Origin: Candidatus Omnitrophota bacterium
GTDB lineage: Bacteria > Omnitrophota > Gorgyraeia > Zapsychrales > JBDRMG01
Length of the DNA: 64,000 nucleotides
Assembly (NCBI GenBank): GCA_043812495.1
Contig: JBDRMG010000016.1
Coordinates: 2,137-66,136, forward strand
Reading direction: 5' to 3'
Shown here: positions 1,611-62,094 of the stretch, piece after piece
Layout of the letters: the number at the start of each line of letters is the position of its first letter
Position numbering within the stretch: position 1 is the first letter of the stretch
Position numbers and translations under genes: made by a program
Notes under the pieces: model-generated
Databases searched by the model: none
What the model was told of the DNA's origin: nothing
What the model saw: the letters and a program-made list of their open reading frames with translations, nothing else

Positions 1611-1644
1611 CCCCCCACCACTTTTTATAAAAAAGTGGGGGGGG
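1611..1644 (-). terminator. GC-rich hairpin (CCCCCCACCACTTTTT/ATAA/AAAAGTGGGGGGGG) abutting the stop of the SpoIID-like gene and 40 nt upstream of the queA start
   Basis: The inverted repeat is visible in the sequence. There is no clear U-tract, so it may act as a terminator or attenuator. Confidence 0.4.
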
Positions 1645-2868
1645 TCAATTCGGCCTCGCACTTATGTTCTGCCCCACCTTTGGCGGGGCATCCATAAGTG
1701 CGGGCCTCATTGAAACAATGTCAACGCCGGGATAATAGAATTTTAAAATTTTATCATAGGAATACCTTTCACGAGCCATAAAATTGACGCCCCATTGGCA
1801 TAAACCGACGCCGTGCCCCCATCCTTTTCCGCTAAAATCCATATAATAGCCTTTGGGGATGGTCTGGTAATTATTGCTTTTGATGATATTGGGCCCGATG
1901 ATATCGCGAAAGGTTTTTCCCTCCATCTCTAGAGTCTTATTGTCCCTGGTTGTGATCAAGAGTTTGTCGATGCGTCCGCTTTTATTACGCTCAAGTATCT
2001 CGATATCTTTAATAAGCCAAAGAGCGTATCCCGCCGCATTCAGTTTCTCTTGAATTTCTTTTAACTGAATGTTCTTTTTCCATGAAAAATGAGGTGATTG
2101 TCTGCAATAAGGACAAACAACGCCTTTTAAACAAGGCCAATCCCCTTTCCAAAGATTGCTCGCATCTTCCGTATGCCCGGCGCAGGTGGCATGATAATAC
2201 GCAGGGATGATTTTCCCCTGATAGGTCATGACCAAACCTTTTGTGCGGTTGACAGCAATATTTGTTCGATACCTCTCGGCATGACGTCCGCCATAAACTT
2301 GAGAATAGATATCGCTTCGCACATCAAATGTCTTATTCTTATTAATGTTTTTCTGATAAAGCGCATAGGTTCTGGCCGCCACGGCCTGGGCCTTCATGGC
2401 CTCCATGGGCCAGCGATGAGAAATCTCATGATAAAGAACGCCTTTGATATAATCTTCCAAATCAACGGTATTGACAACGATACCCTGATGGTCTTGCGTT
2501 CTAATAATACTCAGGGAACCTCTAAATCGTCGACGATTGACATAAATAGACGCGTCTTTGGTCGGCTGAATGTTAATCCAATCCAAAGAATATTCTTTTT
2601 CGGCAATCATGATGCTTTTCGATGTAAATTCAACCGTAGAGTCCTTCAGGGCCTTTCTCTCTTCGCTCAGAATATTATTGTGCTGGTCCGTTAACTTATA
2701 TCCGCCCTGGATCGCGCAATCAAAATTCGATATATCCGTTAAGATGGCTACCCTGATCACAGAGGCCGCGGTATTCGTCAGCCCATAGACCGATCGTTGA
2801 GCCAAAGGAATTTGCAACAGTAGACCCAGAGCACATAAAATTGATAATTTTCGCATGCACTTGGTCAT
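1645..2868 (-). CDS. SpoIID/LytB-domain protein with N-terminal signal peptide
   Basis: The 407-aa ORF has a hydrophobic N-terminus and the SpoIID-family core (AMKAQAVAARTYAL, YHATCAGHTE, WGHGVGLCQWG). Confidence 0.75.
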   Translation of the reverse strand: MTKCMRKLSILCALGLLLQIPLAQRSVYGLTNTAASVIRVAILTDISNFDCAIQGGYKLTDQHNNILSEERKALKDSTVEFTSKSIMIAEKEYSLDWINIQPTKDASIYVNRRRFRGSLSIIRTQDHQGIVVNTVDLEDYIKGVLYHEISHRWPMEAMKAQAVAARTYALYQKNINKNKTFDVRSDIYSQVYGGRHAERYRTNIAVNRTKGLVMTYQGKIIPAYYHATCAGHTEDASNLWKGDWPCLKGVVCPYCRQSPHFSWKKNIQLKEIQEKLNAAGYALWLIKDIEILERNKSGRIDKLLITTRDNKTLEMEGKTFRDIIGPNIIKSNNYQTIPKGYYMDFSGKGWGHGVGLCQWGVNFMARERYSYDKILKFYYPGVDIVSMRPALMDAPPKVGQNISARPN

Positions 2869-17940: not shown

Positions 17941-19215
17941 TTAGCGAATGATAATTTCGTCCCTCTTGGAGCCGATCGAAATATATTTCACCCCCACTTT
18001 CAAAAGCTGCTCTAAGCGCTCGATATAACGTCTGGCGTTGACCGGAAGCTGTCGAAACGTTCGCACACCGTGCAAAGGTTTCTGCCAGCCACTTAATTCT
18101 TCGTAAACCGGCTTTGCTTTCTGGATGACCTCCAAATCCAAGGGGAAATCTTTTAACAGTTTTCCTTTATATCGATAGGCCGTACAAATCTTTATTTTCT
18201 TAAGGTTATCCAATACATCCAGTTTCATAATAGCGAGTTCGCTGGCCCCGTTAATAATAACGGCATACCTCACCAGAACGCTATCAAACCAGCCGCAACG
18301 TCGAGGCCGACCGGTTGTGGCTCCGTATTCTTTTCCTTTTAAGCGGATTTCATCTTTGAGTTTTGTAGAAAACTCCGTTGGGAACGGCCCCTCGCCCACT
18401 CTGGTTGTATACGCTTTAACAACGGCAATGGCCTTATGGATCCTAGTTGGTGATACACCGCTTCCGGCGCACACACCCCCGGCAATAGAGTTGGATGACG
18501 TCACGAAAGGATATGTGCCAAAATCGATATCCAAAAATGTCCCTTGCGCTCCCTCAAACAAAATTGATCTCTTATTGTCAATCGAACGGTTGAGAAGCAG
18601 GGCCGTATCGCAAATATAAGGCTTGAGGATACGGCCGTATTCCAAATATTCATTGTAGACATCTTTAAAGGAGAACGGCGGCTTATGATAAACCCTCTGG
18701 AAGGTCTCATTCTTTTCTCTAAGATTATCCTTGAGTTTCAAAGCCAGCAAGTGCGCATTGAGTAGATCTACAACACGAATTCCGCAACGTGTCACTTTAT
18801 CCGCATAACAAGGGCCTATGCCGCGGCCTGTTGTACCGATTTTATTTTTTCTCTTGGATTCCCGCAGGGTATCCAAAATTCTATGATACGGCATGACCAC
18901 ATGCGCATTACCGGAAATCTTCAACTTTTTAGGCGTTACGTCAATATGCTGACTTTTCAGCCCGTTCATTTCGCCCAAAAGAGCTTTGGGATCCACAACA
19001 ACACCGTTGCCGATGACACAGATTTTGCTTCTATGTAGTATTGCGGATGGAATCAAGTGAAAGATGTATTGTTTTTCTCCGACAACAACGGTGTGCCCCG
19101 CATTATTTCCGCCTTGATAGCGAACGGTGATATCCGCATCCTTGGAGAGAATATCAATGAGCTTGCCTTTTCCTTCATCCCCCCACTGGGCGCCAAAAAC
19201 AACGACTGTATTCAT
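17941..19215 (-). CDS. purA: Adenylosuccinate synthetase (start taken at MNTVVV)
   Basis: QWGDEGKGK P-loop, GGNNAGHTV, and the GTTGRGIGP and TTGRPRRCGW motifs. Confidence 0.95.
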   Translation of the reverse strand: MNTVVVFGAQWGDEGKGKLIDILSKDADITVRYQGGNNAGHTVVVGEKQYIFHLIPSAILHRSKICVIGNGVVVDPKALLGEMNGLKSQHIDVTPKKLKISGNAHVVMPYHRILDTLRESKRKNKIGTTGRGIGPCYADKVTRCGIRVVDLLNAHLLALKLKDNLREKNETFQRVYHKPPFSFKDVYNEYLEYGRILKPYICDTALLLNRSIDNKRSILFEGAQGTFLDIDFGTYPFVTSSNSIAGGVCAGSGVSPTRIHKAIAVVKAYTTRVGEGPFPTEFSTKLKDEIRLKGKEYGATTGRPRRCGWFDSVLVRYAVIINGASELAIMKLDVLDNLKKIKICTAYRYKGKLLKDFPLDLEVIQKAKPVYEELSGWQKPLHGVRTFRQLPVNARRYIERLEQLLKVGVKYISIGSKRDEIIIR

Positions 19216-19269
19216 GGAAGCCTTTCTTTTCAATGAGGCCTAAATTTACGGAATGAAGTGACGTAAATT

Positions 19270-19500
19270 TGACGGCCGAATCCTTCGACCTAGCTCAGGA
19301 TGTCCTTCGACTTGGCTCAGGATCATTCGAAGGATCATGAGCAACGTCGAATGAGAAGGATGGTGAGCCCGTTCGACTCACTTCGTCCTTCGAGAGGCTC
19401 AGGACTTGGCCTGAGCAAGGCGAAGCCGCGTCGAAGGCCTTCGTTCGCTCAGGGTCCTGAGTTTATCGAAGGACGAAAGTCGAACCATTGACCCCGAGCT
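19270..19500. repeat. Palindrome-rich repeat region in the purA-serA spacer. It reiterates CCTTCGA/TCGAAGG and GCTCAGG/CCTGAGC units.
   Basis: At least 7 copies of TCGAAGG or its complement and 5 copies of CTCAGG(A)/CCTGAGC within ~230 bp. It begins with the 19-nt near-direct repeat CCTTCGAC(C/T)T(A/G)GCTCAGGAT. Confidence 0.6.
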
Positions 19501-19567
19501 CGCCATTGATTCAGTAGCGAGCGAGGGGATTAAGCAAATTAAATTATAATATTTCCTTATTTCCCGA

Positions 19568-19603
19568 CACAAAAAAGCGGCGGTTCGATTTGTCCCACCG
19601 CTT
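19568..19603 (-). terminator. Rho-independent terminator downstream of serA
   Basis: On the minus strand: AGCGGTGG GACAAATCGAA CCGCCGCT followed by TTTTTTGTG. Confidence 0.8.
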
Positions 19604-19611
19604 GATACGCT

Positions 19612-22388: not shown

Positions 22389-22997
22389 TTATTTCTTCTC
22401 ACCCGCATGAAGAATGACTTCATCGACGATTCCGTAATCTTTGGCTTCGCTCGCTGTCATAAAGAAATCCCGGTCCGCATCGGTTTCGACTCTTTCTAGC
22501 GGTTGGCCGGTGTGCTTAGAAAGAATTTCGTTAAGTTGTTTTTTAATGCGTAAGATTTCCTTGGCCTGAATGGAAATATCGCTGGCCGCGCCCTGTGTTC
22601 CGCCCCAGGGTTGATGAATCATCACGCGCGAATAAGGAAGCGCAAACCGTTTTCCTTTTCTGCCGCTTGACAATAAAAGAGCCCCCATGCTCGCGGCCTG
22701 ACCAATGCAATAGGTACAAACATCCGGCTTAACAAACTGAATGGTGTCATAAATCGCCAAACCTGCCGTGACAGATCCGCCGGGCGTATTGACATAGAGG
22801 TTAATGTCCTTAGACGCATCTTCGGATTGCAAGAATAATAATTGCGCAATGATGAGATTAGCGACATTATCGTCAATCATCGTTCCGACGAAAATGATGC
22901 GTTCTTTGAGCAGACGCGAATAAATATCGTAAGCTCTTTCGGCATGACCACTTTTCTCGATGACCATAGGAATTAAAATTTGTGATTTTGGATCCAT
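22389..22997 (-). CDS. clpP: ATP-dependent Clp protease proteolytic subunit (start at MDPKSQ behind an AAGGAGGG RBS)
   Basis: Catalytic triad context GQAASMGA and HQP, full ClpP length. Confidence 0.93.
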
Positions 22998-23020
22998 TGA
23001 CTTTCCCTCCTTTAATGAGT

Positions 23021-23059
23021 GCATTGGCTTACGCGACCGAAGGGAGCGTAAGTCAATGC
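23021..23059 (-). promoter_or_regulatory. Leader hairpin with CCGAAGG-containing loop immediately upstream of the clpP RBS
   Basis: GCATTGGCTTACGC/GACCGAAGGGA/GCGTAAGTCAATGC inverted repeat. Its counterpart is upstream of ilvC. Confidence 0.5.
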
Positions 23060-23060
23060 A

Positions 23061-23184
23061 CGAATTAAACCCCCACACCAATTTCAGTTGGAGTGCTGAG
23101 TTTATTTAGAGAATTTTTATTATGATTTAACCTCATCTTTAAATTTTCATTCACCGTGTCAAATTGGTGTGGGGGCAAATTCGG
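23061..23184. repeat. Copy A of a MITE-like composite element: 24-bp terminal inverted repeats (CGAATTAAACCCCCACACCAATTT ... AAATTGGTGTGGGGGCAAATTCGG) flanking ~76 bp of AT-rich DNA
   Basis: A perfect inverted repeat is seen directly. A second copy with the same arm sequence lies at 60607..60721. Confidence 0.7.
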
Positions 23185-23202
23185 ACAAACAACTTGCATT
23201 CA

Positions 23203-24111
23203 CTACGTTCTGCAAGTTGTGTCCTCATTTGCCCAGGTGGCTTCCTTTAATAAAAACTCGATAACTTTATTCACCATATTTTCTTGCCTCTGGATCTCAA
23301 TTTTTTCAAGCTGAGCAATTTTCTCCACAATAAAATAGACCTTCAGATCCTTTTCGGCAACCTTTTCCAAATCCTTGCGCATTTGATCTTCCTTCTTGGC
23401 TATGTCGTCTTCCTTGAGACCCTGCTGTTTCATGCGCTCTTTCGTTTCTGAGAGACGGTGTTCAAGCTGTTTCTTAACGACTGCTTGAGGAACAGTCACT
23501 TTGGTATTCTTTAACAGATGTTCGACGATCTGATTTTCGACGTCAAAACGATTTTGCCGATCCTTGTCCACTTCCATTTGTCTTTTGAGAGAGTCTTTGA
23601 ACGCATCAAGGCTCGGATATCCAAGACTTTTAGCGAAACCATCATCAACCTTGGCCTCTTTTTCCTGACCTTGTCCCTTTTTGAACATATCAAAAACTTT
23701 ATTGATTTCCTCATCTTTTACCGCGGAACTCTTTCGCGTCACCTTGATCCCTTTATAATCTTTGACAATGATATCCGGCCGAATATCAAATTTCGCCGTA
23801 AAAGAAATAATGCCGTCCTTAAAAGACACGTCTTGAATTTCCGGTAGATCAATCGGTAATAACTGCTCTTTTTCGACACCCTCCTGATAAACTTCGGGGA
23901 TAACCTTCTGAATGGTTTCTTCCTGAGCCAGCTTTCCATAATGAGATTCCAGAATTTCTTTCGGAACCTTGCCCGGCCGAAATCCTTTGACCTTGGCTTC
24001 TTTGCCGATTTCTTTATAGACATCATCCATGGCTTGAGTCACGCGGTCTTTCGGAACCTCGATTTTCATCTCTCGTCTTGTTGCATCAATTTTTTTGACT
24101 TCCACTTTCAT
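23203..24111 (-). CDS. tig: Trigger factor, short form lacking the FKBP-type PPIase domain
   Basis: N-terminal ribosome-binding domain with the GFRPGKVP signature joined directly to a TF C-terminal helical domain. It is 302 aa against the usual ~430 aa, and is located upstream of clpP. Confidence 0.8.
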   Translation of the reverse strand: MKVEVKKIDATRREMKIEVPKDRVTQAMDDVYKEIGKEAKVKGFRPGKVPKEILESHYGKLAQEETIQKVIPEVYQEGVEKEQLLPIDLPEIQDVSFKDGIISFTAKFDIRPDIIVKDYKGIKVTRKSSAVKDEEINKVFDMFKKGQGQEKEAKVDDGFAKSLGYPSLDAFKDSLKRQMEVDKDRQNRFDVENQIVEHLLKNTKVTVPQAVVKKQLEHRLSETKERMKQQGLKEDDIAKKEDQMRKDLEKVAEKDLKVYFIVEKIAQLEKIEIQRQENMVNKVIEFLLKEATWANEDTTCRT

Positions 24112-30006: not shown

Positions 30007-30141
30007 TTAATCTTCGTCCCTCAAAAAACCTAATTGCGGGGATTCTGATGTATCTTCCGAAAGACCTAACAAAAGCGGCAGGTTGGCGGGAACGATTTGA
30101 AAAATAACCGGCGCAAAGCCGTCGATTTTGATGGTATGAAT
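30007..30141 (-). pseudogene. Degenerate remnant of a giant-gene 3' end (encodes ...IKIDGFAPVIFQIVPANLPLLLGLSEDTSESPQLGFLRDED*)
   Basis: About 80 percent nucleotide identity over ~113 nt to the last codons of the 2405-aa gene at 31528..31640, with higher identity at the peptide level. An in-frame TGA lies 10 codons upstream and there is no ATG. Confidence 0.7.
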
Positions 30142-31513: not shown

Positions 31514-34500
31514 TTATCGCAAAAGACCCAACTGCGGGGATTCTAATTCGTCTTCTGAAAGGTCTAATAAAAGCGGCAGATTGGTGGGAACGATTTGAAA
31601 AATCACCGGGCTAAAGCCGCCGATTTGGATGGATTGGATAGATTGAGGATCGATTGGTATGCTAAAATCTACTCCCGCGCCTTGAGTTTGGAGTTCTAAT
31701 ATATTTGGATTGAGGTCAATACCGCCGACCTTCTCTGCTGCGATATGGTCTTGCCCTTCAACAATAACTCTATCTAATTGTTCTGCCTGTACGAAATCTT
31801 CCTGCGCTTCGTCAACTGATCCAGAATTCCCTCGGTCAAATAAAGCCTGTCCAGTTGCAAAGAAACGCATAATATTAAGCAACTCATTCGGCATTTCAAT
31901 ATGATTCATTTCAAGAATATGAAAGAACCACAACAATTTTTGTCCAACACTGTTTTTTGATTGCAACACTTGAGTGACCAGTTCGTTCCGGATATCTCTA
32001 TTCAATGTGCCACCGAGCTCTTGAATTATATTTTCCAAAACATCCTTTTGGCTATCGCGGACGGCCACCATTAATTTTCCCAGCAACCGCCGATTATTTT
32101 TGTTAAGTCCAAAAGATGCTCCTGCATCAATCAAAACAATACGAACTCGACCGTTCTCGCCCTTCTGTATCAAAATATTTCCCAAGTGAGGGTCTCCGTG
32201 ATAAAAGCCCTCATAGAAAATTTCCCGTAATAGTTCATTGGCCACAGCCAATTCGACATCCTTCTGATCAACCCCTGACTCCTGCACGCGTGCTTCATTC
32301 GACAATTTAATACCATCAATGTATTCCATAACAATTAGTGAATTGTTAAAGACCTCAATTATCTGCGGAACATAAAATTCATAGTCCCCTCTTACCTCTC
32401 CCAATCGAGTGTCACCAAATAATTTCTTTAAAGAAAACTCCTTAATTCTCTTCAATACGGTTCGCTGAACCCGGGAACCTAATTCGGCCGTATTCTTTGC
32501 CTCCTGCTCAAAATCCAGTTCTTGCCGAAACCCTTCTTCTAGCTGTGAAATGAAATTATCCGGTATAACAATTCCTTCCTCCACAAAAGCCGAACGTAAG
32601 TCATCATCGAAGACATCCTTCAAAAACTTCATGTCGGCCTCAATAGTCTTATCGACTTCGGATCGTTTAACTTTGATAGCCACTATTCTGCCATCGCGCA
32701 TCTTGGCTCGATAAACGCCAGCAATTTTTGCACTGCCCAAAGGTTCTTCAATGCTCTCAAACTGTCCCGTCAAATCAAATTTTTCCAACATATCAAAGAC
32801 CACTCCTTTATCCATCCTGCGAGCACTGTCTTGAACCAGCGACAATTCATCCCGCATAACCGGAGTGACCCACAAAGAACGAGCCAAAACTTGTGCCAGT
32901 TGGCGACCGACTAATCCAAGCGACTCCAGAAACATACGCACTGCACGAGCCTCTTGCCTCTCCGGAGTGATGTTTGGCTGACCAGCTTGCATTTCACCAC
33001 GCTGTAAGGACAAAGTCCAGGCTAACGAAAGAAAAATTTCCTCACGGCGAGATTGGTCAGCTTTCTCAAAAACCTTATCAAAGACTTTTTTTAGAACGCT
33101 CTTATTCGGACCATCTTTGATTAGGAAATCAAACATGCCGTCCAGCAAATTTGACATGGCTGTGGGATCATTAAAAATGCCTTTTTCGCCATATAGAAAC
33201 GGCTCCAGAGCCTCCCGTTGTGACGACTGACCAGCCAAAGGATAATATTTGCTCTGCCTTCGGCCAAAATCTTCTCGCATGCTATCTGCATTAACGTGGA
33301 AATTATATTCGAAATCAATAAGGAAAAACGGCTTCTCGTCTGTGATGCCCATAAGCCAAAGAAGAAGATGCGCTTTCTCAGTTGGGCTGCGATCCTTCAT
33401 CCATGCGCGAAATACATCAGCATGCATTGCCGTTCGCGCCGTTTCTTTAAGATCCAAATCTTTGGTCTTTTTGAACGGATCAAGATAAAGCGCTCTGACC
33501 TGCTCGTATTGCTCACGCGTCTTTGTCAAGAATTGTGCTGTCTCTGAAAGAATATCATCCCTGATTAACGAAGCTTCTGGGAAGAATCTCTGAATTTTCT
33601 GAAGAACATCATCCAACGTTCCAAATTCTTCAGGATGTTCCGTGCGATATTGATCAAAGACGCCTAACGCCAGATTATCCCGCAATTCGCGGTTATGAAC
33701 CATCGCCAGCAGTTTTTCAATCTCATCGACGGTCTTGTCTCGACCCTCAGCCTGAATTGCCTCTTTAATCCATTTGTCCCTTACCAATGATGATTGCGGA
33801 TAATACTTTTCAATAGATTCTCTTTTAGAAGCCAATGATAACTCTGAAAAACCGATGATGTTTCTCATTTCCTCTTCGGCCAAACGGCTAACAAACACAT
33901 ATAATTGAGCAACGGGTCCTCCCGGATTAGAATAAATCATATCATCGTAATCACCACTCTCCTGATTATGCTCTTGGCGAATAGCAGTCTCATCTAATTG
34001 AGGAGCATTTTTGGAGTATCGATCTCTCCAATAGGCCGCCACAGTTGCTTCATTAGACTTTTCCATAATTCCATCATGAACAAAATATGGCGCGATTGCC
34101 GCTATGGCCGATAAAACACCCGCTCTTTCATCTGTCGATAGCCCGGCAAGATGCATCTGCATCCTTTTAATATCAAAAATTGCGTCGTTATGGCCAGTAT
34201 ATCCGGCCTGATTAATAAGCACCCGATTGACGAAAAGCATATAAAGAACAAAATTTTTGAATACTGATGGCGGCATCTCTCGAACTACCACATCAACAGC
34301 CTCCTCGTAATCTGCAGGAAGCAAAGCGATAAAATCAAATAACCGCATAAAATCATCAAAGGCAATTTCCTCTCTCATGAAGCGAACCGCGTTCCTAGGT
34401 CGTTGCTTAGTGGCTTGTTTGGTATAGTCAGCCTCTTCAGAAACCCCCTTGCCTGAAATGTCTCCGGCAAATACACGCCAAACACTACTCCCAAGCCTGA

Positions 34501-37500
34501 CATCATCCTCTTTAAGTCTCACGTCATAACCAAGCTCCACGAACAGTGCCTGCAAATAAACCGGCGCCGTATACTTTCCAAAGGCCTCTTCTTGCTGTTC
34601 CGGTGTTGAATCTTTTTCAGATAATAATTGACCAATCGAATGGCGATTACGCTCCAGTAACTCCTTGATCAAGCCAAATTCATCGTTGTTAACATTTTCG
34701 ATTCTCCGTTCAGGATTAATCTCATTCCAACGATCAAAAATCTTGAGCCGATCCTTGTTAGATAAAGCATTATATCGTTCTGATAAATCTTCTTCATCAT
34801 AAACTGGACGCTCAGGCTCGGCGTTTTTGATAAAGGAAATAATTTGTGGATCAGAAAACATGCTTCCCTTTTTTTCTCTAACACGCAATGCACCGAAAAT
34901 AAAATTTCTCAAATTCTTTCCTTCCGGGATTCCCCCCCCCAGGGCAATAACATAAAAAATTGGTCTTAATTCGCGTCGTGTCCTCTCAATTAAAGGCCTA
35001 AACTCCTTGGGTATATGCTCAAAAAGAACTCTTTCAAAAGCATCACCAGTAAACATTTGACTATCTCCACGTGCCCTTAGCCAAAGATCGCGGAAAATAC
35101 CCAAATCATTATTGATGTGTTCTTCTCTAAATTTCGTGAAAATCTTTTGATGCACAAGAACAAGCTCTTCAGAAGAAACTTTGTTGGCTTTTGCATGCGC
35201 GGCTTCAACAAAAACTTTCAATACATTCTGCATATTCTTAACAATGTTTTTATTCGCCAATAAACTGTCCAAGTATTCTATCCTGCTTCCCAGAAAGACG
35301 ATGCCTTGGCCTTCCTTAAATAGAGTTTGTATATCCAACTTTATAAACTCGGCTCTTAATGAATTCCACCCATCATCCCGACGTAAAAGCCAGTCCATAA
35401 GTTCCTTCTTTGCGTCAGGAGAAGTATTGCGAGCAAGTTTGTATAATTCCTCGGCAAGTCCGTCCGCTTTTAATGCATAATTGACCTTGGTCCCTAAAAT
35501 TTCATAAACACGAATCAGGAGCCTGATGTCTTCTGATTCTAACTGACTTCGATAAACAGTGGATGAAGTCAAGACTGATGCCATTTGACTTAACGGTTCA
35601 GCAAATAAATAACCTTTGAAGTACCCTTGTGAATCCTGCATATCTATCAAGTCAGTAAGAAAATGGCGGGCCTGTTCTAATGTCAGTTTGCCTTGCTGGG
35701 CATCCTTAACCATTCTTATATACAATCCATACAGGAAGCCGCTGGCATAGTGCTTAAATCGATCACTCGCACGCCTTGGCCCTTTCATAGGAAGGACATA
35801 AGAATCGAGCCTTGAAAGAACTCTTTTAGCTTGTTCATGTCGATCATTCATCTTTTGTTTCTCCACATCAATTGACATAGAGAAAATACCCGGAACGCCT
35901 AGTTCATAAATTTGAACGATCGTTTCAGGGGATAATAACTGACCAAGGCCAAGAAAAGAATTCATGTCTGAGCTTAAATCTTCTCTCTTTAGTCCAAGCA
36001 TCACATAGATTTCATCCCTCATATATTTAAATAAAACTTGTTTGGCTTCATCCTCACCGGAAAATTCTTTTATCCGTTGTTCAAATACCGTTTGAGCTAG
36101 AAGATAAAATTGCTTTTCAGTATCAGGTAAAACCTCATAACCAATCAACATCGCAAAATGCAATTCTTCAATTGTCTTTGCCTCATTCAATAAGGATATG
36201 AGATTCGATGTGTTTGTAACATTGATAACTCTTTCTTGAAATTCTCTAAATCGCGTTCTTTGTTGAGAAAGGGGAACAGATTTTAATGCCGTAGGCGGGA
36301 CGTCTTGATTCTGCCAGTGATATGTCAGGATCTGGTGCTGCAACTTTCTTAAACGTTCTTCTATTTGGGGGTGAGTGCCCCAAAAAGCGTCACGTTCGCC
36401 GCGTGCCGTCAGCCAATGCTCTATGCCAGCAAGAATATGTGGCGCCGACCTAACTGAAAAACCAGCTCTGTCCATCAACCACAAAGCTAATAAGTCACTC
36501 TGATATTCCTTGCCTCGATCTTCCGCATGACGATCTATCAATCTTTTCTTTTCATCAAACCGACCTTCATCAATTTCGCGACGGTTCTGCATAATATGCA
36601 AAATTTCATGAGACAAAACCCAAGCTAACGCATCTTGCGTTACATCAAGATTATTAGTGCTCGCATATTCCGTGAGCATACGAATAAGCCCCAAATTAAC
36701 TACGATAGTATTATAATAATTCACGACATAGGCATTAGGATCAGTCGTATCCGCGAGGAAAAATTGAAATTCTTGTGGGTTCAGTCCCTGAGCAATTAAT
36801 AATCGGTCTATAACACTACGTACCTCATCATATAACGTCTGAAACTGCTCGAAATCTTCCTTCCCAGGAGCAATGAAGCGATCAACGACATCCTTTTGTT
36901 TCAGAAACTTTTCTTTACGATCAACGTCTCGGTTATATTCGCTCTGAGATTTTAAAGGTGTCCCCGGAATAGTTTTTCCAACCTTTTTCCTGTCCGATAC
37001 AGGAACTCTTCGGATGCTAGGACTGATTATATCCCTTCTCGCAACCTCATATTCTTGCCGGGCGGTTTCTTGATCAATCTGCTGATCGCCGGCCCGTAAT
37101 CTCTGGCGTGCGTTATTGTGGGCGATAATCCAATGCTTCCCTGCTTTTCTTTCCTGAACTTCCTCTCGCTCAAGGTCAAGCTGCTGATCAATTTCACTTT
37201 CAAAGACAATGATTTTCCAAATCTCGTCTGTGCCTTTAAAGTTAATCGCCTGAACGCCACCCTTCGGATCCATGACCCATCTTTGAATGGCTTTTCCTAA
37301 ATCCGTTTCCTTAACCGCATCTGAAATGACAAAAACGCGGACATCGTTTTCTTCATCCATTGTCTCAGCAATTAATCCTTGTTGTTCGAGATGGCCTAAA
37401 ATAAACTCTAGAATTTGATCTTCAGTGGCATCATTTGCAACTTCGGGAACATTCTCACTCCTAGCCAGAATATTTATTAACCTACGAAAGCGGTCTAGAT

Positions 37501-38731
37501 TTTTGACAGGATCTAAAACAGTCGAAACTGTTCTTAGCGATCCGGCTGTTGTTTCATTTGCTTTGGCTAAAGTTTCAACTCCACTCTTTGATTCAACTGA
37601 AAGAGCTTCATCAATTGCCTTTCCTCGGAACTCCATCCCGCCAGAAAAATATTTCCTGGGTATAATCTGTCGAGTTGTTGGATCATAATCTTCTTTGATG
37701 TAGTTATAAACGCCTACTTTAAACGCTTCGACATACTGTTGATAAATTTTTTCTCTAACCTTCTTGTCCTCAATGTCAACCCCACTGACTTTATTTTCAC
37801 CAACATAAACTTTTCCCAAAAGACTTTCTTTAAGATTACGCTTAAACCATGTGGCCAGAATCATGGAATGATATATCTGACGCAATAATGAAAAGTTTTC
37901 TCCGTTATTAACCTCTTTCTCAATCTCCGGGATAATGACTTCTCTCACAATTTCAGAAGAAATATTGCTGAGTTGTTCAACATCCTCTTCATCTAACTTA
38001 TCCGTGCCAATTGTTTCTTTGTTTAGATTTTCCTTGAGAGCAAGATAATCCCCTTCCAGCATGACTTTTAAATGGCTTTCAATAATAAAAGCCGTATCTC
38101 CGGTCTCGTACACAAGAGCTTTTTCCGGAACAACCCAGACTTTATTGAAAGTATTTATTGGTATTTCTGCCGTCCCATAACGCTCGCGCGCCTTCTCATA
38201 GACTCGATTCCAAAACTGTTCCCCTAATTCGTCTTCAGGATAAATCAACGAAGCCGTTAATTGCTTGAGGATATAGTCCTGGCCCAACAAATCCCTGCCC
38301 ATTTCAGTAATACCTAATTGATCAGGGATAATTCTATCCTGTTCATAAGGGGATAGATTGACCCATAATTCGTCCTCTGGCACCGTTAGGGAAGCCAGGA
38401 AATATTTGATAAGTTTGGAAGATTCTGTCTGTAAAGTTTCATCCTCGAATTGAGCGCTGCCTGTATCTATGATGAAATCAAATCGAAGAGGATTATTCAC
38501 AAAGATCTTGATACCTTTTATAACGGCAGGGGTAAAATTCGGGGTTGGCATAACCATAGCTCCGACCGCAGGAAGATTCAACAGACCCTGGGCATGAGCA
38601 GGCGGTGGCGGGGTGATGAGGCTTGAGAGAAACGCCAGAATAACAAAAGACACAGCGCATCTGTAAGGGGCCCTGGAGGTAGCGTTTGATTTTCGGCTTT
38701 GAGAAAGCATCCCTTTAATATGAATATTCAT
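31514..38731 (-). CDS. Giant 2405-aa secreted multidomain protein with an M48-like zinc-metalloprotease segment and a C-terminal ABC1/UbiB-type atypical kinase domain
   Basis: A single uninterrupted ORF. The N-terminal signal peptide is hydrophobic (AVSFVILAFLSSLI), then PPPPAHA/QG. Around aa 690-720, DPNAYVVNYYNTIVVNLGLIRML...ALAWVLSHEILHIMQ follows the M48 NAF...GLL...HEXXH pattern. The C-terminal ~300 aa match ABC1 motifs: LGSAKIAGVYRAKMRDGRIVAIKVKRSEV, FYHGDPHLGNILI and LIDAGASFGL. Confidence 0.85.
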   Translation of the reverse strand: MNIHIKGMLSQSRKSNATSRAPYRCAVSFVILAFLSSLITPPPPAHAQGLLNLPAVGAMVMPTPNFTPAVIKGIKIFVNNPLRFDFIIDTGSAQFEDETLQTESSKLIKYFLASLTVPEDELWVNLSPYEQDRIIPDQLGITEMGRDLLGQDYILKQLTASLIYPEDELGEQFWNRVYEKARERYGTAEIPINTFNKVWVVPEKALVYETGDTAFIIESHLKVMLEGDYLALKENLNKETIGTDKLDEEDVEQLSNISSEIVREVIIPEIEKEVNNGENFSLLRQIYHSMILATWFKRNLKESLLGKVYVGENKVSGVDIEDKKVREKIYQQYVEAFKVGVYNYIKEDYDPTTRQIIPRKYFSGGMEFRGKAIDEALSVESKSGVETLAKANETTAGSLRTVSTVLDPVKNLDRFRRLINILARSENVPEVANDATEDQILEFILGHLEQQGLIAETMDEENDVRVFVISDAVKETDLGKAIQRWVMDPKGGVQAINFKGTDEIWKIIVFESEIDQQLDLEREEVQERKAGKHWIIAHNNARQRLRAGDQQIDQETARQEYEVARRDIISPSIRRVPVSDRKKVGKTIPGTPLKSQSEYNRDVDRKEKFLKQKDVVDRFIAPGKEDFEQFQTLYDEVRSVIDRLLIAQGLNPQEFQFFLADTTDPNAYVVNYYNTIVVNLGLIRMLTEYASTNNLDVTQDALAWVLSHEILHIMQNRREIDEGRFDEKKRLIDRHAEDRGKEYQSDLLALWLMDRAGFSVRSAPHILAGIEHWLTARGERDAFWGTHPQIEERLRKLQHQILTYHWQNQDVPPTALKSVPLSQQRTRFREFQERVINVTNTSNLISLLNEAKTIEELHFAMLIGYEVLPDTEKQFYLLAQTVFEQRIKEFSGEDEAKQVLFKYMRDEIYVMLGLKREDLSSDMNSFLGLGQLLSPETIVQIYELGVPGIFSMSIDVEKQKMNDRHEQAKRVLSRLDSYVLPMKGPRRASDRFKHYASGFLYGLYIRMVKDAQQGKLTLEQARHFLTDLIDMQDSQGYFKGYLFAEPLSQMASVLTSSTVYRSQLESEDIRLLIRVYEILGTKVNYALKADGLAEELYKLARNTSPDAKKELMDWLLRRDDGWNSLRAEFIKLDIQTLFKEGQGIVFLGSRIEYLDSLLANKNIVKNMQNVLKVFVEAAHAKANKVSSEELVLVHQKIFTKFREEHINNDLGIFRDLWLRARGDSQMFTGDAFERVLFEHIPKEFRPLIERTRRELRPIFYVIALGGGIPEGKNLRNFIFGALRVREKKGSMFSDPQIISFIKNAEPERPVYDEEDLSERYNALSNKDRLKIFDRWNEINPERRIENVNNDEFGLIKELLERNRHSIGQLLSEKDSTPEQQEEAFGKYTAPVYLQALFVELGYDVRLKEDDVRLGSSVWRVFAGDISGKGVSEEADYTKQATKQRPRNAVRFMREEIAFDDFMRLFDFIALLPADYEEAVDVVVREMPPSVFKNFVLYMLFVNRVLINQAGYTGHNDAIFDIKRMQMHLAGLSTDERAGVLSAIAAIAPYFVHDGIMEKSNEATVAAYWRDRYSKNAPQLDETAIRQEHNQESGDYDDMIYSNPGGPVAQLYVFVSRLAEEEMRNIIGFSELSLASKRESIEKYYPQSSLVRDKWIKEAIQAEGRDKTVDEIEKLLAMVHNRELRDNLALGVFDQYRTEHPEEFGTLDDVLQKIQRFFPEASLIRDDILSETAQFLTKTREQYEQVRALYLDPFKKTKDLDLKETARTAMHADVFRAWMKDRSPTEKAHLLLWLMGITDEKPFFLIDFEYNFHVNADSMREDFGRRQSKYYPLAGQSSQREALEPFLYGEKGIFNDPTAMSNLLDGMFDFLIKDGPNKSVLKKVFDKVFEKADQSRREEIFLSLAWTLSLQRGEMQAGQPNITPERQEARAVRMFLESLGLVGRQLAQVLARSLWVTPVMRDELSLVQDSARRMDKGVVFDMLEKFDLTGQFESIEEPLGSAKIAGVYRAKMRDGRIVAIKVKRSEVDKTIEADMKFLKDVFDDDLRSAFVEEGIVIPDNFISQLEEGFRQELDFEQEAKNTAELGSRVQRTVLKRIKEFSLKKLFGDTRLGEVRGDYEFYVPQIIEVFNNSLIVMEYIDGIKLSNEARVQESGVDQKDVELAVANELLREIFYEGFYHGDPHLGNILIQKGENGRVRIVLIDAGASFGLNKNNRRLLGKLMVAVRDSQKDVLENIIQELGGTLNRDIRNELVTQVLQSKNSVGQKLLWFFHILEMNHIEMPNELLNIMRFFATGQALFDRGNSGSVDEAQEDFVQAEQLDRVIVEGQDHIAAEKVGGIDLNPNILELQTQGAGVDFSIPIDPQSIQSIQIGGFSPVIFQIVPTNLPLLLDLSEDELESPQLGLLR
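31528..31640. repeat. Direct repeat copy 2: the 3' end of the giant gene, duplicated in diverged form at 30029..30141
   Basis: The two segments were aligned by eye at ~80 percent identity. The pair brackets the HEPN/MNT cassette. Confidence 0.7.
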
Positions 38732-39007: not shown

Positions 39008-39089
39008 CCCCGCCCGCCATTGATTCGGTGGCGGGCGGGGTCAATTCGCACTGATCAGTTACGTTCCCTACAGTCACGTAACTGATGTG
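39008..39089 (-). terminator. Tandem GC-rich hairpins downstream of the DUF4143 ATPase gene
   Basis: CCCCGCCCGCCA/ttgattcgg/TGGCGGGCGGGG, then ATCAGTTACGT/tccctacagtc/ACGTAACTGAT. Confidence 0.5.
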
Positions 39090-39105
39090 CTCATTGATTT
39101 GTTTT

Positions 39106-59405: not shown

Positions 59406-59450
59406 TCATTTGACCGTTTATTTAGTCTTCCTCCAAGGCATCATAAATGA

Positions 59451-59540
59451 CCCCGCCGCTTTTTGCTTTTTTCTATAACAAAAAGCAAAAGGCGGGGGAA
59501 TTTATCCCGAGCCCGCCTATGATTTGATGGCGGGCGAGGG
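59451..59540 (-). terminator. Two consecutive GC-stem/AT-loop hairpins downstream of ilvC
   Basis: CCCCGCCGCTTTTTGCTTTT/ttctataac/AAAAGCAAAAGGCGGGGG, then CCCGAGCCCGCC/tatgatttgat/GGCGGGCGAGGG. Confidence 0.55.
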
Positions 59541-59543
59541 ATT

Positions 59544-60536
59544 TCAATGTTTCATCCAAGGCATCATATCTCGTAATTGACGCCCCACGTCTTCGATTTT
59601 GTGCTGGTCGGCTTCTTCGCGCCATTTGGTCAGATTGGGCCGGCCTTTTTTATTTTCGCGAATCCATTCGCGCGCAAATTTCCCTGATTGAACATCGGCA
59701 AGCATCTTTTTCATGATCTTGCGCGTCTTATCGTTGATCACTTTCTTACCGCGGGAAAAGTCTCCGTATTCCGCTGTATCCGAAACACGTTTGCGCATCC
59801 CTTGAATACCGACTTCATAGATAAGATCCGTGATTAATTTTAACTCATGCAGGCATTCAAAATAAGCGATCTCGGGCTGATAGCCGGCTTCCACAAGCGT
59901 ATCGAATCCGGCCTTGATCAATTCGCTCACGCCGCCGCAGAGAACCGCTTGCTCGCCAAAAAGATCAGTTTCTGTTTCTTCTTTGAAGGTCGTTTCGATC
60001 ACGCCAGCCCTTGTGCCGCCGATTCCTTTGGCGTAAGCCAAGGCTTTTTGCAAAGCTTTGCCCGAGGCATCCTGATGAATGGCCACTAGGCAAGGAACGC
60101 CTTTGCCTTCCTCATACTGACGACGGACCAAAGCGCCGGGACCTTTGGGCGCGATCATAAAAACATCCACATCCGCCGGAGGATCAATCTGCCCAAAGTG
60201 AATGTTAAACCCATGGGAGAACATAATGGATTTTCCGCTTTTTAAATGCCGTCGGATGGATTTCTTATAAACCATGGCCTGGATATGGTCCTGCGTGAGG
60301 ATCTGAATAATATCGGCATTCTTGGCAGCGGTATTGGCATCCACCGGATCAAAACCGTCTTGTTTGGCCATCTCATAATTGGGTGTTCCCTCAAGTTCGC
60401 TGACGATAACTTTCAAACCGCTATCGCGCAGATTCAAGGCCTGGCCGCGACCTTGAATTCCATATCCCACAATCGCAATCGTTTGATCGTTGAGAATATT
60501 CGAATCAGCATCTTTGTCATAATAAATTTTTGCCAT
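59544..60536 (-). CDS. ilvC: Ketol-acid reductoisomerase
   Basis: [11 protein letters not shown]-terminal motif and the class I KARI core, 330 aa. Confidence 0.95.
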
Positions 60537-60556
60537 AATGAAACCTCCTTCAATGA

Positions 60557-60603
60557 CGACACAACTTATGGAGTCCGAAGGACGACATAAGTTGTGCGTC
60601 GGG
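60557..60603 (-). promoter_or_regulatory. Leader hairpin with CCGAAGG-containing loop immediately upstream of the ilvC RBS
   Basis: CGACACAACTTATG/gagtccgaaggacga/CATAAGTTGTGCGTCG. It sits in the same position and has the same loop motif as the clpP leader hairpin. Confidence 0.5.
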
Positions 60604-60606
60604 ATT

Positions 60607-60721
60607 GAACCCCCACGCCAATTTTCCTGAAATACTAAAACTTAACCTAATATTGCTATTATTTTCAAACTACATATAAATATTCTCCCCACATAATAAA
60701 AATTGGTGTGGGGGTAAATTC
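60607..60721. repeat. Copy B of the MITE-like composite element (arms GAACCCCCACGCCAATTTT ... AAAATTGGTGTGGGGGTAAATTC)
   Basis: The inverted-repeat arms share their core with copy A at 23061..23184. The ~72-bp interior is AT-rich. Confidence 0.7.
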
Positions 60722-60726
60722 AGCCT

Positions 60727-60769
60727 ATGACTTAGCTCCCCCGATGATACATCGGGGGAGCTAAGTCAT
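60727..60769 (-). terminator. Perfect 19-20 bp hairpin (ATGACTTAGCTCCCCCGAT g ata c ATCGGGGGAGCTAAGTCAT) abutting the fba stop
   Basis: A perfect palindrome seen in the sequence, with no U-tract. Confidence 0.5.
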
Positions 60770-60777
60770 GGCTTCAT

Positions 60778-62094
60778 TTAATCGTCTCCCTCACCGTCTA
60801 GAACAGCTTTCGATGATTTGATGCCCAATTTAAAATCCTTGGGCTGGATAAAATCCTCAACGGTCTTCTTGGTGTCATTCACTCTCAGTTGCTTGAAGAG
60901 AAAATCGAATTTTGACTCGATCTCTTGCGCAATACCTTCTTTGATTTCTTCGGGAAGCTCCATAATCTCTCTTTTAAAAGGACCCAGGGCTTTCTTGCGT
61001 GTCTTGTAAATAAACTGATCTTCCGTCTGCCCGTCTTTCATTTCTTTAGCGCAATTCTTTTTCAACCATGCATACATCTTATCTTTGAGTTCCTTCGGAA
61101 AAATCGTGCTATCGAACATCATGTTCTGAAAGTTTGTCGCCAGATGAACTTCCAGTGTTTCGTTGTCGGGTAATTTTCCGAAAGCCGCCGGAGGCAAGGT
61201 GGACGCTCCATGCTGAACCGTTCCGCCCAAATGATAATTTTCCCGTCCATACTTTGCAAGATTTTTAAGGACATCGAAATCGACTTTGACCTGCGCAATC
61301 GAGCCATCCGGTAGAACAACGCCTCCGTGCGAGGTTCCTGTCTGAACGCTGATTTTGCTGATTCCCTCCATTCCCGGAGGAAGGCTGTCTAAGTAGCCGT
61401 CCATATAGGCCTTGAGTTCCTTAATGTTAGAATTCTTTCCGCCCACTTCGCCGATTTCACCGCCGACGGATACCACAATGCCCTCGGGCTGAACCTTGCG
61501 AATGTATTTGGTCAATTCGGCGCATACCTCAAAATTGTCTCTTTGTTGTTCCAGGATTTCCTTTCTCTCCAAATCAACAACGGTAGAGCTGTCGATATCG
61601 ATATTGAGGAAACCGGCTCCCACGGCATCGTCAATGAGATGTTTTAAACCGTTGACTTCTTTTTCGCGATCCACAGCAAACATTTTAGCATTGAGCTGAA
61701 AATGATCCCCTTGGATAAAAACAGGACCGCTGTATTCCTCTTTAATGGCGGCCGCCAGAATAACGCCCGTGTATTCCATGGGCGGTTGATCGGTGTAGCC
61801 CATTTCGGATTTGGCAATCTCAAAGATAAAGGCCCCGGCATTGTTTTTCTTGGCAACACGGAAGATCGCCCTCGCTAAATAATAGGTCAAATTTCTCAGA
61901 TTGATTGCCGGCACTGTAAAACCAGAAACTTTGCCTTCTCCTACCGCTTTGTACAAATCATGAATCGAGGCAAGAAAAATACCCTTCTCTTTAGCCATCG
62001 CTTGAATTTGATTTGTGATTTTCTGCTTTTTTTCGGCGCTCTCGGTCATGATGAGATCTTTTGCGATTTGATCAATATCCTTTTTGCTTGTCAT
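60778..62094 (-). CDS. fba: Fructose-bisphosphate aldolase, class II (long form)
   Basis: 438 aa with class II aldolase metal-binding His context (GDHFQ, TSHGG). Confidence 0.8.
   Translation of the reverse strand: MTSKKDIDQIAKDLIMTESAEKKQKITNQIQAMAKEKGIFLASIHDLYKAVGEGKVSGFTVPAINLRNLTYYLARAIFRVAKKNNAGAFIFEIAKSEMGYTDQPPMEYTGVILAAAIKEEYSGPVFIQGDHFQLNAKMFAVDREKEVNGLKHLIDDAVGAGFLNIDIDSSTVVDLERKEILEQQRDNFEVCAELTKYIRKVQPEGIVVSVGGEIGEVGGKNSNIKELKAYMDGYLDSLPPGMEGISKISVQTGTSHGGVVLPDGSIAQVKVDFDVLKNLAKYGRENYHLGGTVQHGASTLPPAAFGKLPDNETLEVHLATNFQNMMFDSTIFPKELKDKMYAWLKKNCAKEMKDGQTEDQFIYKTRKKALGPFKREIMELPEEIKEGIAQEIESKFDFLFKQLRVNDTKKTVEDFIQPKDFKLGIKSSKAVLDGEGDD

Follow-up and report, generated by a model that had tools for sequence, protein, structure and literature searches.

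The repeat before clpP and ilvC in an Omnitrophota genome looks like tolerated selfish DNA, not a promoter or a dedicated regulator

Three-hairpin composites fill the clpP and ilvC spacers

The 64,000-nucleotide stretch of Candidatus Omnitrophota contig JBDRMG010000016.1 analysed here (the window) carries clpP downstream of the trigger factor gene tig, and ilvC downstream of an aldolase-like gene. The same kind of repeat stands before both genes. Its core is an inverted-repeat (IR) unit of about 105 bp, made up of CCCCCACACCAATTT, some 75 nt of interior and AAATTGGTGTGGGGG. At both loci this unit is the middle member of a composite of three hairpins (side hairpin, IR unit, inverted side hairpin) that takes up the entire spacer between the stop codon of the upstream gene and the Shine-Dalgarno (SD) sequence of the downstream one. 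Because clpP and ilvC lie on the minus strand, the order in mRNA sense is upstream gene, hairpin, unit, hairpin, SD, ATG. The composite is a repeated, structured and insertion-polymorphic mosaic, and to us it looks like tolerated selfish DNA rather than a promoter or a dedicated regulator.

Two inverted pairs (Table 1) account for the four matches to the 15-nt arm core (AAATTGGTGTGGGGG or its complement) in the window; 0.15 are expected by chance, and none of 100 shuffles gave four. The first-pass annotation had described copy A, before clpP, as bounded by perfect 24-bp inverted repeats. The inverted arms are real, but only 15 bp are perfect; outward from these lie 3 unpaired nt and then a shifted 5-bp match, GAATT/AATTC. 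In copy B, before ilvC, the one mismatch in arm 60610-60624 gives G-U on the plus strand and A-C on the minus strand. Copies A and B can barely be aligned except in the arms and the CCTTCGG loop.

A hairpin with CCGAAGG in its loop lies between the unit and the ribosome-binding site at both loci (23019-23061 and 60557-60601), and the modules follow the same order 5' of clpP and ilvC, as had been proposed. What had been missed is the third hairpin on the far side of the unit (23189-23220 and 60725-60771), which belongs to the same family and is inverted. The clpP-side hairpin has 15 Watson-Crick pairs plus one G-T pair and an 11-nt loop, with minus-strand linkers TTTAATTC and CTCATT. Its counterpart at tig has the loop AGAACGUAGUGAAU, which contains the tig stop codon, and linkers AAAUGAGGAC and GUCCGAAUUU. 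On the ilvC side the hairpin includes an inner GUCC-UUC-GGAC stem-loop (minus strand), with CCGAAGG within the loop, and on the aldolase side there is a 21-bp stem whose linker AAUGAAGCC abuts the upstream stop codon TAA (60780-60778). Compared with shuffled sequences, the predicted folds are very stable (copy A region, -83.8 kcal/mol, z = -6.9; copy B region, -108.2 kcal/mol, z = -10.6), and the SD is predicted to be single-stranded in the minimum-energy folds of both loci.

Side modules surround an interchangeable centre

In mRNA sense, the upstream part of the composite reads stop codon, (UC)AAAUGA, hairpin and GAAUUUGA before the unit, and the downstream part reads UUUAAUUC, hairpin, UCAUUAAAGGAGG, 5-8 nt and AUG after it. 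Each Omnitrophota-type locus has the unit bracketed on both sides by hairpins with conserved linkers (AAATGA/GAATTT and AAATTC/TCATT), each module being about 55 nt. An alignment of 12 upstream modules shows compensatory changes at 12 of 19 predicted pairs and a conserved loop, GGAACnnAGUGAAC.

The covariance model built from these twelve upstream modules, R1, found seven side modules in the window, four sense and three antisense, inverted about a centre. Those on the sense (minus) strand stand 5' of a central hairpin (23175-23229, 60714-60778, 39041-39095 and 1645-1711), and those on the opposite strand directly precede an SD and start codon (23014-23069, 60552-60609 and 19232-19288). These matches identify the hairpins next to clpP and ilvC as inverted copies of the module found 3' of the upstream genes. 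What had been read as a leader hairpin is not specific to leaders: it is one half of an inverted pair of a module resembling repetitive extragenic palindromic (REP) sequences, which is also seen at the 3' ends of genes.

The centre can be exchanged. At 39008-39040, 59511-59539 and 1612-1644 the central slot holds a short GC-rich hairpin that starts with CCCC and ends with GGGG. Locus L063, in assembly SDBU01, has the three-hairpin layout before ilvC, but with a 25-nt centre; it was the one clear case (L063:1952) in a search for composites with both linkers and a short centre. Locus L002 was considered as an orthologue of copy B on account of its shared flanks and rejected, its neighbour being DegV-like by eye; since the two loci are not orthologous, those flanks belong to the repeat.

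Members of a family of GC-rich hairpins (GCCCGCCATTGATTCGGTGGCGGGC-like; CCCC or TCCC at one end, GGGG or GGGA at the other) lie at 19498-19526, 39012-39040 and 59511-59539, in the slot of the IR unit or after gene ends. After two central hairpins, at 1584-1614 and 19525-19555, we also noted related 31-nt sequences (GGGGATTAAGCAAA...ATAAAT..ATTTC; 77% complementary) that may represent a further linker or module.

Table 1. Composites, partial composites and adjoining genes in the window.
Feature	Position	Strand	Details
clpP CDS	22389..22997	-	
Shine-Dalgarno GGAGGG of clpP	23005..23010	-	unpaired in predicted fold; clpP ATG 22997-22995
Side module adjoining clpP (R-module in mRNA sense)	23014..23069	+	R1 38.0 bits, E = 4.7e-07
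IR unit, copy A	23070..23175		arms 23070-23084 + 23161-23175, 15 bp perfect
Copy A interior	23085-23160		76 nt, 30% GC
Copy A imperfect outer extension	23061-23069 + 23176-23184		GAATT/AATTC
Side module adjoining tig (L-module)	23175..23229	-	R1 70.7 bits (copy is part of the training set)
tig (trigger factor) CDS, upstream gene	23203..24111	-	synteny; Pfam Trigger_N/C in relatives
ilvC CDS	59544..60536	-	
Shine-Dalgarno CCTCC of ilvC	60544-60548		ilvC ATG 60536-60534
Side module adjoining ilvC (R-module)	60552..60609	+	R1 43.0 bits, E = 2.2e-08
IR unit, copy B	60610..60714		arms 60610-60624 (one mismatch) + 60700-60714
Copy B interior			75 nt, 24% GC
Side module adjoining aldolase-like gene (L-module)	60714..60778	-	R1 39.0 bits, E = 2.5e-07
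Half-composite without IR unit	39008..39095	-	side module 39041-95, then GC-rich hairpin CCCCGCCCGCC..GGCGGGCGGGG (39008-39040)
Half-composite	1612..1711	-	side module 1645-1711, then short central hairpin CCCCCCCCAC..GUGGUGGGGGG (1612-1644)
Solitary inverted side module	19232..19288	+	directly 5' of gene 17941-19233; R1 48.5 bits
Half-composite past ilvC stop	59446..59543	-	central-type hairpin 59511-59539, TAAATTC, hairpin 59456-59495, TCATTTA

Close relatives lack the composite

Three relatives with ClpP 82-85% identical to that of the window share the gene order hydrolase, lptC, lptB, tig, clpP, aminotransferase, serA. In these genomes tig and clpP overlap by 4 bp, overlap, or stand 62 bp apart, compared to about 205 bp in the window, and the overlap implies that the two genes are co-transcribed. 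Relatives with IlvC 84-87% identical have the order aldolase, ilvC, methyltransferase, leuA, as in the window, and their aldolase-ilvC spacers without the composite measure 33 nt (L110), 107 nt of unrelated sequence (L108) and 163 nt (L107). The R1 model found no side modules in about 33 kb from relatives without the composite.

Because syntenic close relatives lack the composite at both loci, we regard it as an insertion, and its sporadic presence shows that the three-hairpin architecture is not an ancestral leader. No genome was seen to have the side hairpins at the same locus while lacking the unit; L063, with its 25-nt centre, comes closest. In L109 the contig begins inside the downstream module, 34 nt before ilvC. 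The ClpP of the window is 100% identical to that of an Omnitrophota metagenome-assembled genome (MAG) at NCBI, on a contig of 132,652 bp.

The spacer of L107 (IlvC 87% identical) holds another long palindrome at 1838-2000, rich in GATATCAG/CTGATAATC and with a predicted energy of -66 kcal/mol. This different palindrome indicates that the aldolase-ilvC spacer attracts unrelated palindromic insertions.

The IR unit belongs to a family found in at least four phyla

We searched public contigs for exact arms separated by 60-90 nt. Contigs of species-representative genomes gave 31 two-arm loci and metagenomes gave 68 more, which together with the window makes 101 two-arm copies (88 non-redundant) rather than just the two at clpP and ilvC. 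By record title, the hosts span at least four phyla: Omnitrophota, Planctomycetota/Phycisphaerae, Patescibacteria (Zambryskibacteria, Moraniibacteriota, Saccharibacteria, Staskawiczbacteria) and Bdellovibrionales. Viral contigs contained zero two-arm copies and one solitary arm with TAAA but no partner. Genomes carry multiple copies, with two in the 64-kb window, 4-6 per MAG in JAHJUV01, CAINDG01 and CAZBLD01, and 11 in the SDBU01 contigs. The arm sequence, as DNA or as RNA, was absent from papers in a full-text literature search.

The units are non-coding and 97-119 bp long, with interiors of 67-89 nt (mode 74-75 nt). Interior sequence is free to vary, and its GC content follows that of the host genome, being GC-rich in GC-rich hosts. 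Mini-copies have interiors of only 19-41 nt. In the SDBU01 subfamily, a small open reading frame (ORF) of 19 codons in the interior (MWGGRSRIYSKVDEYITPK) was rejected because sister copies, read by eye in an alignment, have in-frame stops.

Two arrangements outside the window were also noted. In L091 (201-312) two mini-units stand in tandem with only TTTAC between them, and in L068 (141-369) the left flank repeats about 60 nt of the unit interior and has an extra left arm at 141. Both suggest tandem duplication or nested insertion.

Insertions duplicate 4 bp and occur where they can be tolerated

Identical 4-mers abut both arms in 27 of the 88 non-redundant copies, and identical 5-mers in none. 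When flanks were re-paired at random, the mean number of 4-mer matches was 11.9 and the maximum in 5000 trials was 23. Flanks pair like with like, TTTA on the left with TTTA on the right (8 cases in the metagenome set) and TAAA with TAAA, and two of the duplications, CGAG and CTGG, are not AT-rich. Flank identity fixed at four bases is the signature of a target-site duplication (TSD) of 4 bp, and it is seen family-wide.

Many copies begin one base past a stop codon (TAA|A) or reach to within a few bases of a start codon. Within genes, long ORFs read through the unit at six distinct sites, each with a combined length of unit and 4 extra nt that is divisible by three (105, 108 or 111); the carriers include UvrA and a UDG-family gene. 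At several planctomycete loci the unit lies within the leader of prepilin-like proteins. Locus L020, read by eye, allows the insertion to be reconstructed: deleting the unit and one TTTA restores ...KKG|FTLIE, and with the unit in place the reading frame remains open and once more finishes in G|FTLIE.

RNA genes also carry the unit. It lies inside 16S rRNA genes in L008 and L106 and inside a 23S rRNA gene in L087, with gene boundaries delimited by Rfam; the 16S site is presumably near helix 40. In L084 the unit sits 3 bases 5' of tRNA-Leu(CAG), where its terminal GGG and the duplicated CGAG reconstitute the acceptor stem. This placement pattern is the survival pattern of selfish DNA. Together with the 101 copies, the interiors of 67-89 nt, the many 4-bp duplications, the insertions that can be reconstructed and the relatives without the composite, it bears out the earlier description of the unit as a miniature inverted-repeat transposable element (MITE) with terminal inverted repeats (TIRs).

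Some host genes drew our attention for other reasons. A single 23S gene from the candidate phyla radiation (CPR) in L087 (1065-2285) has a perfect arm pair and two others that are degenerate or short, and a 16S gene in L106 has a second mini-copy (7760-7822), so that rRNA genes can gather several units. In five planctomycete loci (L015, L023, L031, L081 and L092) a small Cys-rich ORF without a Pfam match (...CPYLENG[unit]KC.VRN.RFAGCRIFFC...) has the unit at one shared position, in frame. The peptide encoded there is conserved (PPHQF.L.R..LKEHLKP.GL.FKT.HR.ANWCGG), and the insert may be translated and under selection.

Promoter and RNA-family searches argue against a mobile promoter and a dedicated leader

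The first-pass annotation had raised the possibility of a mobile promoter, with candidate -35/-10 hexamers in the AT-rich interior. A promoter that the inverted repeats mobilise or flip would fit an AT-rich interior placed directly 5' of genes, and both interior orientations do occur among paralogous copies (L071 versus the other SDBU01 copies). However, a consensus scan of both interiors on both strands, which covered sigma-70-like -35/-10 pairs, found no such pair and did not bear out the proposed hexamers. Interiors are moreover unrelated between copies and GC-rich in GC-rich hosts, mini-copies retain 19-41 nt of them, and units lie inside rRNA genes and in frame within coding sequences. 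The tig-clpP overlap in relatives implies that clpP is co-transcribed with tig. Given these observations, we consider a mobile or invertible promoter very improbable.

We disfavour even more strongly a riboswitch-like cis-regulator or small RNA gene dedicated to clpP and ilvC, which seems scarcely probable at all. It would account for two leaders that are alike in architecture and have very stable folds. On the other hand, Rfam gave 0 matches in the window at the gathering threshold, and at E <= 10 only generic miRNA/snoRNA hairpin matches. The interior sequence is unconserved, about 100 unrelated contexts in several phyla share these arms, and the element is absent from the leaders of close relatives. 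On a shared cis-regulatory RNA structure in the wider sense the evidence is divided: the side hairpins covary and the composites are somewhat polar, but their presence among relatives is sporadic. Terminator-like calls were limited to the antisense strand of the upstream hairpin of copy B.

A probable MITE-like unit nested in a hairpin mosaic

We think it probable that the IR unit is a selfish, MITE-like element nested in a hairpin mosaic of the kind called bacterial interspersed mosaic elements (BIMEs), inserted between adjacent genes of operons. What had appeared to be a shared leader is a by-product of two repeat families filling intergenic spacers.

In the mechanism that we propose, the central piece would consist of some 75 nt of dispensable interior between 15-bp TIRs (CCCCCACACCAATTT). 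It would insert with a 4-bp target duplication, preferring TAAA/TTTA, and would persist only where it is harmless: between genes, 1 nt past stops, in rRNA helices, in frame in proteins or prepilin-type leaders, and 5' of a tRNA. In Omnitrophota, the unit would have come to lie between two inverted REP-like side modules, hairpins with AAATGA..GAATTT linkers, giving a BIME-like composite. This composite is presumably transcribed within the tig-clpP and aldolase-ilvC mRNAs, where RNase III could plausibly cut the 16-21-bp arm duplex, as in Correia elements and rRNA intervening sequences (IVSs). After cleavage, the side hairpins could cap both new ends, 3' on the upstream fragment and 5' on the downstream one, while the SD stays single-stranded. 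If it acts at all, the composite probably serves as a double-stranded RNA processing or stability site, and its net effect may be neutral or may be to uncouple the two cistrons. TIRs starting with CCC and a 4-bp TSD point to a mobilising enzyme of the IS1380/piggyBac type, which we treat as a lead only.

Several observations weigh against this reading. Because both flanks are rich in TAAA/TTTA, the 4-bp duplication signal is partly inflated. The window copies have imperfect flank repeats (TAAA/CAAA and TGAA/TAAA, with 3 of 4 positions alike in each), and clean TSDs are generally wanting in Omnitrophota copies. In the window the unit may therefore not have inserted by itself; the item that is polymorphic among relatives is the whole composite. 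No pair of arms 0.5-3 kb apart, as expected of an autonomous element, was found in 784 kb of retrieved loci, so that mobilisation of the unit is something we infer. The arms are kept perfectly while the interiors are near-random, which hints at selection beyond selfish spread, although the apparent arm conservation is biased by a copy search that demanded exact arms. Of 46 co-directional units, 29 have the more stable fold on the sense strand, a non-significant excess; all three rRNA-borne copies favour that strand.

The polarity of the composite likewise hints at selection beyond selfish spread. In sense orientation, the closing pairs are AGCC/GGCT in upstream modules and GCAC/GUGC in downstream modules, and by hand tally the linker-proximal hexamer is TTCAGC in 13 of 24 upstream modules versus TTCGCA in 14 of 25 downstream modules. 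In about 10 of the 11 copies of the SDBU01 subfamily, the interior is oriented alike with respect to the gene downstream, L071 being different.

These regularities are what one would expect if selection kept the polar composite as a domesticated intercistronic RNA cassette that tunes mRNA stability and translation of neighbouring cistrons through a stop-proximal hairpin, a double-stranded RNA processing site and an SD-proximal hairpin. In about 25 Omnitrophota loci the ends of the composite do coincide exactly with the stop codon and the SD, and the covarying side hairpins with their conserved loop GGAACnnAGUGAAC fit such a role. The layout also precedes ilvC in two genomes whose IlvC proteins are about 70% identical by eye and whose upstream genes differ. 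Against domestication, the composite is sporadic, with relatives 82-87% identical that lack it at both loci and have no side modules in about 33 kb. Its centre can be an IR unit, a 25-nt hairpin or a GC-rich hairpin, half-composites exist, and the flanking genes are functionally unrelated. The polarity itself could have arisen because harmful orientations were purged or because the copies descend from a common ancestor. We therefore consider domestication unlikely.

A bolder proposal we rate as rather more doubtful still. The composite may be a self-contained, polar 'operon-splitting' mobile cassette that inserts between cistrons. Its stop-proximal hairpin would shield the 3' end upstream and its SD-proximal hairpin the 5' end downstream, on either side of an RNase III site from a cross-phylum MITE, whose family would also have given rise to the short CPR rRNA insertions. 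If so, a selfish element would have been turned into a standard part for RNA processing between cistrons.

Implications and other repeats in the window

MITE families are normally confined to one genus. Identical 15-bp ends across four phyla imply a shared mobilising enzyme that moves among uncultured freshwater and groundwater lineages. The IR unit is a concrete transposon-like candidate for the origin of at least some short, ORF-less CPR rRNA insertions, and it lets one test the long-standing view that mobile DNA left rRNA intervening sequences behind as relics. For the window itself, the clpP and ilvC 'leaders' should not be taken as the signal of a shared regulon.

Composites also explain several annotation artefacts, namely over-extended ORFs, contig breaks beside ilvC and inserts of 35-37 residues in conserved proteins. 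Examples of over-extended calls are a 440-aa 'IlvC' (P0122) on a 1.5-kb contig and the tig ORF of the window, which continues into the upstream hairpin and terminates within the loop.

The window has 55 long ORFs that do not overlap, every one of them on the minus strand; the spacers between them are very short, with only about a dozen above 45 nt. One spacer, the 378 nt after serA (19234-19611), contains a terminator-like hairpin with a T-run followed by a cluster of CCTGAGC / TCGAAGGA motifs. This cluster is another repeat family and holds a 24-nt inverted repeat (19382-19405 / 19454-19477). A 120-nt direct repeat, 82% identical, occurs 1.5 kb apart at 30022-30141 and 31520-31639, with one copy at the start of a 2405-aa ORF (31514-38731). 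No transposase of the REP-associated tyrosine transposase (RAYT) type was evident among the window ORFs that were read, in which no search was aimed at RAYT.

Comparison with known systems

Correia elements (CREE/NEMIS; about 100-155 bp) have a TA duplication, 26-bp TIRs, a promoter and integration host factor (IHF) sites, and are known from one genus. Like them, the IR unit is miniature, bounded by TIRs and without coding capacity, many intergenic copies appear to be co-transcribed with their neighbours, and the TIRs can pair into a long RNA duplex. Unlike them, it has 15-bp TIRs of another sequence, a 4-bp TSD and no promoter motif, and it occurs in at least four phyla. In Neisseria, the Correia TIR duplex is cleaved by RNase III (PMC10969869).

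Rickettsia palindromic elements (RPEs; about 100-150 bp) resemble the IR unit in being palindromic and inserted in frame, in our case in uvrA, a UDG gene and pilin-like leaders, as well as in rRNA genes. RPEs likewise occur within RNA genes. They differ in being limited to Rickettsia, in lacking a clear signature of TIRs plus TSD, and in having unrelated sequences. Their in-frame insertions are found in conserved protein genes (PMC10969869).

The side modules are closer to the enterobacterial REP/BIME sequences, with which they share short imperfect palindromes in alternating orientation, short conserved linkers, covarying stems and positions between operon genes or at 3' ends. REP/BIME sequences protect mRNA 3' ends and cause differential expression within operons. 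The Omnitrophota mosaic differs from them in sequence and in its central slot, which holds either a long MITE or a short hairpin.

With rRNA IVSs and short CPR insertions, the IR unit shares hairpin insertions of about 100 nt at the tips of 16S and 23S helices. The difference is that the IR-unit family also occurs outside rRNA with target duplications, which to our knowledge has not been described for IVSs or CPR insertions. CPR rRNA genes contain 'uncharacterised, short (<200 bp), ORF-less' insertions, which are presumed to be removed by RNase III (PMC11270868).

The unit resembles IS1380/piggyBac transposons in having ends that start with CCC and a 4-bp duplication, the piggyBac TSD being TTAA or, less often, a variant such as TAAA. 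Duplications of this length are also known from several other IS families. In contrast to IS1380/piggyBac, no transposase was found with IR-unit arms, and the preference is for TAAA/TTTA and not TTAA. IS1380 transposases serve as the prokaryotic outgroup for piggyBac (PMC10813416).

Taken together, these comparisons place a MITE within a REP/BIME-like mosaic among arrangements of a known kind. Two features are out of the ordinary here, the spread of identical ends across phyla and the direct link to short CPR rRNA insertions.

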